64,000 nt of DNA from Mycoplasma sp. CAG:956 (GTDB lineage: Bacteria > Bacillota_I > Bacilli_A > RF39 > UBA660): positions 10,919 through 74,918 of the forward strand of contig HF993083.1 of NCBI GenBank assembly GCA_000433475.1, given 5' to 3'. Under the pieces are notes generated by a model. It saw only the letters and a list, made by a program, of their open reading frames with translations, did not search any database and was not told the origin of the DNA. Of the stretch, positions 59,501 through 59,783 are shown one piece after another. Positions within the stretch are counted from its first letter, which is position 1. Every line of letters starts with the position of its first letter. A program made the position numbers and the translations under genes.

Positions 59501-59783
59501 TTTTCATAGAGTTACATACTCTATGAAAGTGAAATTTCATTATCTATTTTTAATTTATATATTAAATATATCATAAAAATAGGCTATTTACTATATAATT
59601 TTTTTCTTTTTATGGTCAAAATTGTGGTCAGAAAAAAATGTAAAGAAGCCAGTTATTATAGGGATTTGCAAGTGTAAAGTTAGAATTTATTTCGTTATTC
59701 TATTGTGGTCAAATTTCTAGTCAAAAGTACTTTGAAACCAGTATTCACCTAGGTTTATCATAAAGTATGTAACTCTAGGAAAA
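59501..59783. repeat. Inverted-repeat-bounded upstream module, copy 2
   Basis: 59501..59527 vs 59757..59783 match as reverse complements at 24/27. RGTCAR pairs start at 59614/59626 and 59707/59719. ccagtattcacctagg at 59738..59753. Confidence 0.8.

Follow-up and report, generated by a model that had tools for sequence, protein, structure and literature searches.

Promoter inversion is a well-known route of surface variation in host-associated bacteria. In the fim locus of Escherichia coli, switched by FimB and FimE, and in the loci switched by RecV in Clostridioides difficile, a tyrosine recombinase inverts a short promoter segment upstream of surface-structure genes. These are simple two-domain enzymes whose repeats are short and differ between loci, and RecV acts in trans on several of them. 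Mpi of Bacteroides fragilis is a serine recombinase with another site grammar, and the switches of the Mycoplasma penetrans mpl genes are about 135 bp long with 12-bp repeats. Published accounts describe mpl (the P35 family) as many paralogous surface-protein genes, each with its own invertible promoter and combinatorially ON or OFF (PMC10502178, citing Horino et al. 2003), and Mpi as a single global recombinase whose many promoter invertons determine how the surface of a gut commensal is built (cited in PMC11892184). Here we describe a system of this known kind in a 64,000-nucleotide stretch of Mycoplasma sp. CAG:956 (contig HF993083.1, positions 10,919 to 74,918), hereafter the window. Our subject is the module at 59503-59781, called locus 2, which lies between thrS and gene D. 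It is a real, functional element and very probably a phase-variation switch, that is, an invertible promoter or inverton. Gene D (59869..61629, + strand) encodes a 586-aa protein with an N-terminal membrane anchor and belongs to a switch-controlled family; a second module, locus 1 (26435..26723), controls its 586-aa paralogue, gene A (26810..28570, + strand).

The likeness to mpl lies in a small, low-GC genome whose paralogous surface-protein genes are under individual promoter inversions. However, the two sets of switches have no sequence relationship. Those described here measure 277-291 bp, their core sites are lox-like and 25 bp long, they contain internal tandem repeats, and the recombinase assigned to them is of the integrase type; their targets are membrane-anchored proteins with DUF6273-like or ALK_LTK_GRD domains. 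In contrast to fim and the RecV loci, identical 9-bp half-sites occur at all loci here, and only the 7-bp overlap varies. Spacer variants of Cre-lox and FLP-FRT are similar in that the same binding arms recombine only when the spacers match, but those variants are engineered, whereas the diversity of centres here is natural and incomplete, some centres recurring. Further parallels come from lambda Int and the Tn916-Tn1549 Int enzymes: a three-part protein (a predicted N-terminal domain of three strands and a helix, a SAM-like domain and a catalytic domain with R..H.R..H..Y), a 7-bp core overlap, and tandem direct repeats tens of bp from the core. Those enzymes integrate and excise elements, whereas here inversion takes place between two equivalent chromosomal sites, the candidate arm sites all lie between the two cores, and one enzyme would serve dozens of loci.

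In the hCom2 survey, inverton group 139 with invertase group 35, from Clostridia (Clostridium sp. D5, 3525576-3525832), is similar: its repeats are 25 bp, it spans about 257 bp in total, and a tyrosine recombinase is encoded next to it (PMC11892184). The likeness is one of repeat size, length and adjacent recombinase. A literature search for the half-site string or for invertons in RF39 returned no relevant description. The system differs from the known ones in the shared half-sites with locus-specific overlaps, the integrase-type enzyme in a chromosomal role, the phased internal repeats and the host group.

Core sites and inversion of the segment

An earlier note on this DNA had described an L arm at 59501-59527 (ttttcatagagttacatactctatgaa) that matches the reverse complement of an R arm at 59757-59783 at 24/27 positions. 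It had also claimed that the palindromic arms are the same at both loci, while the 7-nt centres are complementary within a locus and different between loci. The sequence bears out both statements, and at locus 1 the arms are complementary at 27/27. A repeat search of the window independently recovers the arm pair (33 nt, 85%), along with the GGTCAA blocks between the arms as a direct repeat. Each arm consists of two 9-bp inverted half-sites, TTCATAGAG and CTCTATGAA, separated by a 7-bp centre that is asymmetric. When at most 3 mismatches are allowed, the pattern TTCATAGAG-N7-CTCTATGAA occurs 4 times in the window (26435, 26699, 59503 and 59757), at the four arms only; shuffled sequence gives 0.09 expected matches, and none of 100 shuffles reached 4.

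The core site of a tyrosine recombinase has an overlap, within which strand exchange takes place, between two half-sites that bind the enzyme. Judged by its sequence, the palindromic arm with a variable centre is this core-site grammar, as in lox, FRT, dif and the att core. At locus 2 the promoter-proximal core site (59503..59527) reads TTCATAGAG, TTACATA, CTCTATGAA. The promoter-distal, gene-proximal site (59757..59781) reads ATCATAAAG, TATGTAA, CTCTAGGAA; it has 3 half-site mismatches, and its centre is the exact reverse complement of its partner's. Between them lie 229 bp (59528..59756). The core sites of locus 1 are at 26435-26459 and 26699-26723, with centres TTAAAAA and TTTTTAA. Because the two core sites of a locus are in inverted orientation, inversion of the DNA between them is predicted.

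To look at orientation, we retrieved public gut-metagenome contigs that encode gene A or gene D identically, and also scanned with the predicted flipped junction. At locus 1, contig L004 has flanks 100% identical to the window over 9.6 kb and 11.9 kb, with the interior 26460-26698 exactly reverse-complemented, and the start of contig L005 already lies within the flipped form. For locus 2, the left junction predicted after inversion, GAAATTTTCATAGAGTTACATACT.TATGA.AAACCTAGGTG, matched one gut-metagenome contig, L117. Its thrS flank corresponds to window 55011-59526 at 98.0% identity (4.5 kb), and its last 269 bp correspond to window 59783->59515 reversed, at 99.3% identity. The left site of L117 reads TTCATAGAG TTACATA CTTTATGAT, which is the outer half of the L site, the centre, and the mismatched inner half of the R site in reverse complement. 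The end of the contig reads ...TTCATAGAGTATG, the reciprocal product. Provided that the sites of the L117 strain were those of the window, the exchange can be traced from these natural mismatches to an interval of 14 bp that includes the centre. The orientation test proposed in the earlier note found both loci inverted in independent metagenome assemblies with their flanks unchanged; public data hold both orientations.

The segment appears to carry a promoter. An extended -10, TGATATATT (59573-59565, - strand), lies 37 nt inside the promoter-proximal site and reads leftwards out of the segment; 17 bp upstream of it is a -35-like TAGTAA (59588..59593, - strand), weak against the family consensus TTTAAA. 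A consensus promoter scan of locus 2 returned TTGACT-16-TAGAAT and TTGACC-18-TATAGT on the same strand as the extended -10. The former is a second sigma-70-like candidate (59697..59724, - strand), whose -35 is the distal repeat of tandem pair A, described below. The extended -10 of locus 1 is TGATATTAT (26505-26497, - strand). Across the family of modules, TGnTAnnnT (mostly TATATT) stands 36-38 nt from one core site in 63/63 aligned modules, against 2-10/63 in control regions, and the hexamer 17 bp upstream of it is mostly TTTAAA.

In the window this promoter would fire towards thrS. After inversion, transcription from it would cross the other core site, then the conserved leader, and enter gene D, turning the gene ON. 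As all promoter candidates point leftwards, away from both genes, we infer that genes D and A are both OFF in the window and that L004, L005 and L117 represent ON forms.

A family of modules in related gut genomes

The earlier note had suggested scanning genomes for the module and asking whether hits precede this protein family. We scanned species-representative genomes (596 Gb) with the perfect site and re-called pairs allowing 3 mismatches; the window species itself is not among these genomes, and its best DNA identity to the representative metagenome-assembled genomes (MAGs) is 85-91%. The perfect-site scan returned at least 111 loci, nearly all of them in some 12 human-gut MAGs whose titles give uncultured Bacilli or Tenericutes, and these related genomes hold at least 197 perfect sites. 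At least 62 perfect pairs are spaced 252-255 or 262-266 bp, with none in between, and 61/62 have exactly complementary centres. When mismatches were allowed, the count rose to at least 104 distinct modules in 12 MAGs (reaching at least 25 in one MAG), of which 102 of the 104 listed have exactly complementary centres. The modules can be aligned end to end, and many pairs carry 1-3 mismatches. Centres mostly differ among the loci of one genome. The position of locus 2 beside thrS is kept in three other species, with a different centre.

A single blastp family that includes genes A and D accounts for 52/64 adjoining open reading frames (ORFs), and the modules lie about 85 bp from the start codons of this family. 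Family proteins have an N-terminal anchor or signal, and their C-terminal parts are either weakly DUF6273-like or clearly glycine-rich of the ALK_LTK_GRD type. The latter domain, PF12810, is found at E 1e-32 to 1e-40 in the products of L006 4351-5547, L064 1060-2430 and L079 1619-2704, while in genes A and D of the window the C-terminus is at best weakly DUF6273-like. The family scan and the orientation results together support the view taken in the earlier note, that conservation of the architecture argues for function.

Orthologous loci were seen in either state across different MAGs. As assembled, the promoter points away from the gene (OFF) in 47/52 modules of the family and towards it (ON) in 5/52, and this mixture of states, across the family and between orthologues, matches what is expected of a large phase-variable family. 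Uncultured low-GC gut Bacilli devote dozens of switches to one exported-protein family, which would make their surface combinatorially variable and bears on the persistence of common, uncultivated gut residents.

Strand exchange needs identical overlaps, which would explain why centres agree within a locus yet mostly vary from one locus to the next. The matched centres in 102 of the 104 listed modules are a natural, large-scale showing of the overlap-identity rule for tyrosine recombinases. By the same rule, differences between the centres of separate loci would limit recombination between switches. A strict address code with one unique centre per locus was considered and set aside, as several centres recur within a genome.

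Some sites stand apart from this pattern. The pair at L086 1558-1845 is the only perfect-arm pair, among those listed, with non-complementary centres (TTTAATA and TATTTAA); it lacks GTCAA motifs and may be a dead or rearranged switch. Single perfect sites at L067 3656 and L110 3467, in a Methanobacteriota MAG and a Flavobacteriaceae MAG, have neither a partner nor a TTGAC pair, and are probably the chance matches expected for 18 specified bases in 596 Gb.

Candidate recombinase and internal tandem repeats

We found no recombinase ORF in the 64-kb window. In a related MAG, contig L007 encodes a 355-aa tyrosine recombinase, with 196 bp between the gene and a switch. For a 79% homologue, the contig opens with a core site 160 bp upstream of the recombinase gene. 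The L007 protein contains Phage_integrase (PF00589) and the SAM-like core-binding domain Phage_int_SAM_3 (PF14659), and R194, H303, R306, H329 and Y339 are invariant in 82 homologues. Its best solved relative is Tn1549 Int (E 1.4e-15; E 1.1e-32; template-modelling score 0.65-0.73). Given this association, the enzyme that inverts the switches would be a chromosomal tyrosine recombinase of the Tn916/Tn1549 type, acting in trans.

The neighbours of the recombinase gene include BacA, RmuC and RNase J; a LeuRS/ValRS-type synthetase and Suf genes; and GlyRS and RecO, with no mobile-element genes in the neighbourhoods examined. A phage origin was considered and discarded, since among the viral contigs of IMG/VR the site turned up only as 2 single copies. 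The housekeeping neighbourhood and the near absence from viral contigs point to an invertase by function rather than the integrase of an element. We also rejected a master-switch arrangement, in which the adjacent switch would drive the recombinase gene, since in L007, L122 and L118 the recombinase gene is separated from the switch or upstream gene by a terminator hairpin and, after it, a TGCTATAAT promoter of its own.

In more distant, Clostridia-type relatives, the recombinase gene lies within an invertible cassette. Between contigs L128 and L129 (recombinase P0058), its orientation with respect to GlyRS and a 5-gene operon is reversed; the junction half-sites are TTCATTATA/TATAATGAA, and there are TAGTCAAA tandem pairs at both cassette ends. 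At L027 3906-5396, two perfect sites flank the gene.

Between the core sites of locus 2 are two tandem pairs. The earlier note had located them as GGTCAA 59614 with GGTCAG 59626 and GGTCAA 59707 with AGTCAA 59719, 12 bp apart within each pair, and the sequence agrees. On the - strand, pair B (59614..59631) reads CTGACC-N6-TTGACC and pair A (59707-59724) reads TTGACT-N6-TTGACC; at locus 1 the corresponding pairs are at 26558-26575 (B) and 26649-26666 (A). In the 107 kb that lie within 300 bp of sites, the motif TYGAC-N7-TYGAC is present 138 times, compared with 4 times in the other 652 kb, an enrichment of about 200-fold. RGTCRRA motifs, which read TTGAC on the opposite strand, the strand of the promoter, are one-stranded in 61/64 modules; the exceptions are one module with a stray opposite-strand match, one with none, and one with degenerate matches on both strands. 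From the distal site to pair A is 32 or 42-43 bp, from pair A to pair B 90-93 bp, and from pair B to the -10 58-59 or 68-70 bp. Both variable spacers therefore shift by one helical turn (10-11 bp), which yields two module size classes.

The repeats are also conserved across lineages. TTGAC pairs are kept beside the same core site in Lachnospiraceae MAGs, where the remaining segment is unrelated, and they are kept near a recombinase of 41% identity, although the half-sites there now read TTCATTATA. The N-terminal 60 residues of the recombinase are among the most conserved parts of its family, and are predicted to form strands at 9-11, 17-26 and 29-37 and a helix from 40, with a predicted local distance difference test score (pLDDT) above 90. 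Three beta-strands followed by a helix is the layout described for the arm-binding domain of the IntTn916 subgroup (PMC8138268).

We suggest that the N-terminal domain of the recombinase may bind the TTGAC-N7-TTGAC pairs (TTGACTAGAAATTTGAC) as arm-type sites. A small looped complex would then form, in which four protomers connect the two core sites with the four arm sites; this would account for spacers that change only in steps of 10-11 bp. From the sequence patterns, we put at roughly even to good the chances that the TTGAC repeats act as arm-type sites within a small intasome formed by the switch. The fuller proposal is quite possible, and we advance it tentatively: a domesticated heterobivalent integrase of the Tn916 type would act as a genome-wide invertase, assembling one looped intasome per switch of about 280 bp (four protomers, four arm sites, two cores), with spacers varying only by whole helical turns and 7-bp overlaps serving as address codes for at least 25 largely independent switches per genome. 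If the arm-site reading is true, arm-binding integrases are not confined to mobile elements. At about 280 bp per switch, the family would also offer synthetic recorders a compact set of inversion sites that are mutually selective and served by one enzyme. Locus-specific overlaps, if they do act as address codes, would be a natural counterpart of engineered heterospecific lox sites.

Several points weigh against this account of locus 2 and its enzyme. The flipped form of locus 2 is seen in one contig only (L117; coverage 2.3; from a strain 98% identical), while the three other contigs with an identical gene D (L001-L003) keep the orientation of the window; locus 2 may switch rarely because its R site has 3 mismatches. 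The ON and OFF assignments derive solely from promoter consensus, and it is only through homology with neighbouring species that an enzyme is assigned to the window genome. Insulation between loci is incomplete, since some centres recur within a genome (TATTAAA, for one, 3 times in three MAGs). The Tn916 arm-binding domain is the top match of the N-terminus but never a significant one (Pfam PF02920, E 0.077; phmmer against 1B69, E 0.3; Foldseek with the isolated domain against 1BB8, E 0.72), and a family profile search for an arm-binding domain gave no match. Finally, the TTGAC repeats could instead be -35 or activator sites, as pair A fits TTGACT-16-TAnAAT.

This last point defines a rival in which the switch is real, but its TTGAC pairs serve transcription, and the recombinase acts on core sites alone, as FimB/FimE or Cre does. 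The distal repeat of pair A lies 16 bp upstream of a TAnAAT that is moderately conserved, all the repeats are on the promoter strand upstream of the extended -10, and the N-terminal domain lacks a significant sequence match to a known arm-binding domain. However, pair B has no -10 at promoter distance, and the second repeat of each pair falls within a spacer. A role in transcription also leaves aside the retention of the pairs in Lachnospiraceae and around the 41%-identical recombinase with diverged half-sites, where the rest is unrelated, the restriction of spacer changes to 10-11 bp, and the highly conserved recombinase N-terminus with its predicted three strands and helix. We regard this rival as possible but somewhat doubtful. 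A different set of binding proteins, the OmpR-type two-component system of the window (19681-21403), was considered for the GGTCAA pairs, but there is no evidence for it.

Locus 2 in its setting

A second rival accepts the mechanism but holds that locus 2 itself is decaying and effectively locked, mismatches in the R site having stopped switching in this strain, and that L117 records an old inversion in another lineage. The mismatches at 3/18 half-site positions, the single orientation shared by the window and all three other contigs with an identical gene D, and the 2% divergence of the L117 flank would fit such a history. Yet in L117 the mismatched half-site CTTTATGAT is found at the opposite end of the segment, which means that the inversion came after those substitutions. 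The centres of locus 2 are still perfectly complementary, and 1-3 mismatches are common among pairs of the family. On balance, a locked copy is unlikely, and we retain the reading of locus 2 as a switch.

That the inversions are assembly artefacts at inverted repeats, and the module a static operator or hairpin or a repeat resembling a miniature inverted-repeat transposable element (MITE), is highly improbable: assemblies do break at the sites (L005 starts inside a module, L117 ends in a site, L122 starts at one), but the repeats, at 25-27 nt, should be below the final k-mer sizes usual for the assemblers given in contig titles, so that a flipped contig would require junction-spanning reads, L004 is an exact reverse complement within 21 kb of 100% identical flanks, the half-site swap of L117 is the prediction of exchange inside the centre, orthologous loci are in either state across MAGs, a static module gives no explanation for complementary centres in 102 of the 104 listed modules, and a MITE-like repeat would not keep a fixed distance of about 85 bp to the start codons of one family.

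Breakage at switches does affect the assembly of MAGs. The contigs of the closest recombinase homologues (P0001, P0002) are 1.5-1.9 kb long despite hundreds of member sequences, and L122 begins exactly at a core site (1-26), consistent with metagenome assemblies of these organisms breaking at switches.

Outside the segment, the thrS side of locus 2 has a terminator hairpin (59429..59458, + strand) with an A-run before it and a T-run after it. By its sequence it looks bidirectional, and it would stop OFF-state transcripts from running antisense into thrS. On the gene side, just outside the switch, a fixed leader (59783..59800, + strand) carries the direct repeat TGTAAAG-N3-TGTAAA, common to many family loci. 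It is followed by the conserved leader TATTATTTATTTTTAATTGGTAATAATA, which is an imperfect hairpin, and by the ribosome-binding region (together 59822..59868, + strand). A search of 59350-59950 against Rfam gave nothing above threshold. The leader sequence tttttaatt(tt)ggta, which the earlier note had reported at both loci, is indeed common to them.

Among family loci the leader repeat takes the form TGTAAAG-N3-4-TGTAAA, while other subfamilies carry CCGAAAATGCG in its place, which resembles AGCGAAAnTTCG just inside the promoter-proximal site. The leader repeat outside the gene-proximal site may be a further protein-binding element, which could bias the direction of switching. Motif X (CCAGTATTCACCTAGG, 59738..59753, + strand) is found at locus 2 in the stretch that separates pair A from the distal core site. 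As the earlier note stated, the sequence there, ccagtattcacctagg, is the exact reverse complement of 26591-26606, the inverted copy at locus 1, where motif X itself occupies 26679-26693. Motif X recurs inverted beyond pair A in several modules, and its orientation beside the core site is reversed in one subfamily.

The remaining observations concern the surroundings of locus 1. Upstream of the decayed paralogue C, where the earlier note had seen no module, the 306 bp of 31797-32102 contain neither a core site (up to 5 mismatches) nor a TTGAC tandem pair. A fragment of the gene family lies at 28720-29124 (+ strand), and a frameshifted family copy at 30439-31796 (- strand). Further along, two tandem ORFs (38636-40003 and 40022-41374) encode proteins of about 450 aa that resemble sigma-70 regions 2-4 and have long N-terminal extensions.

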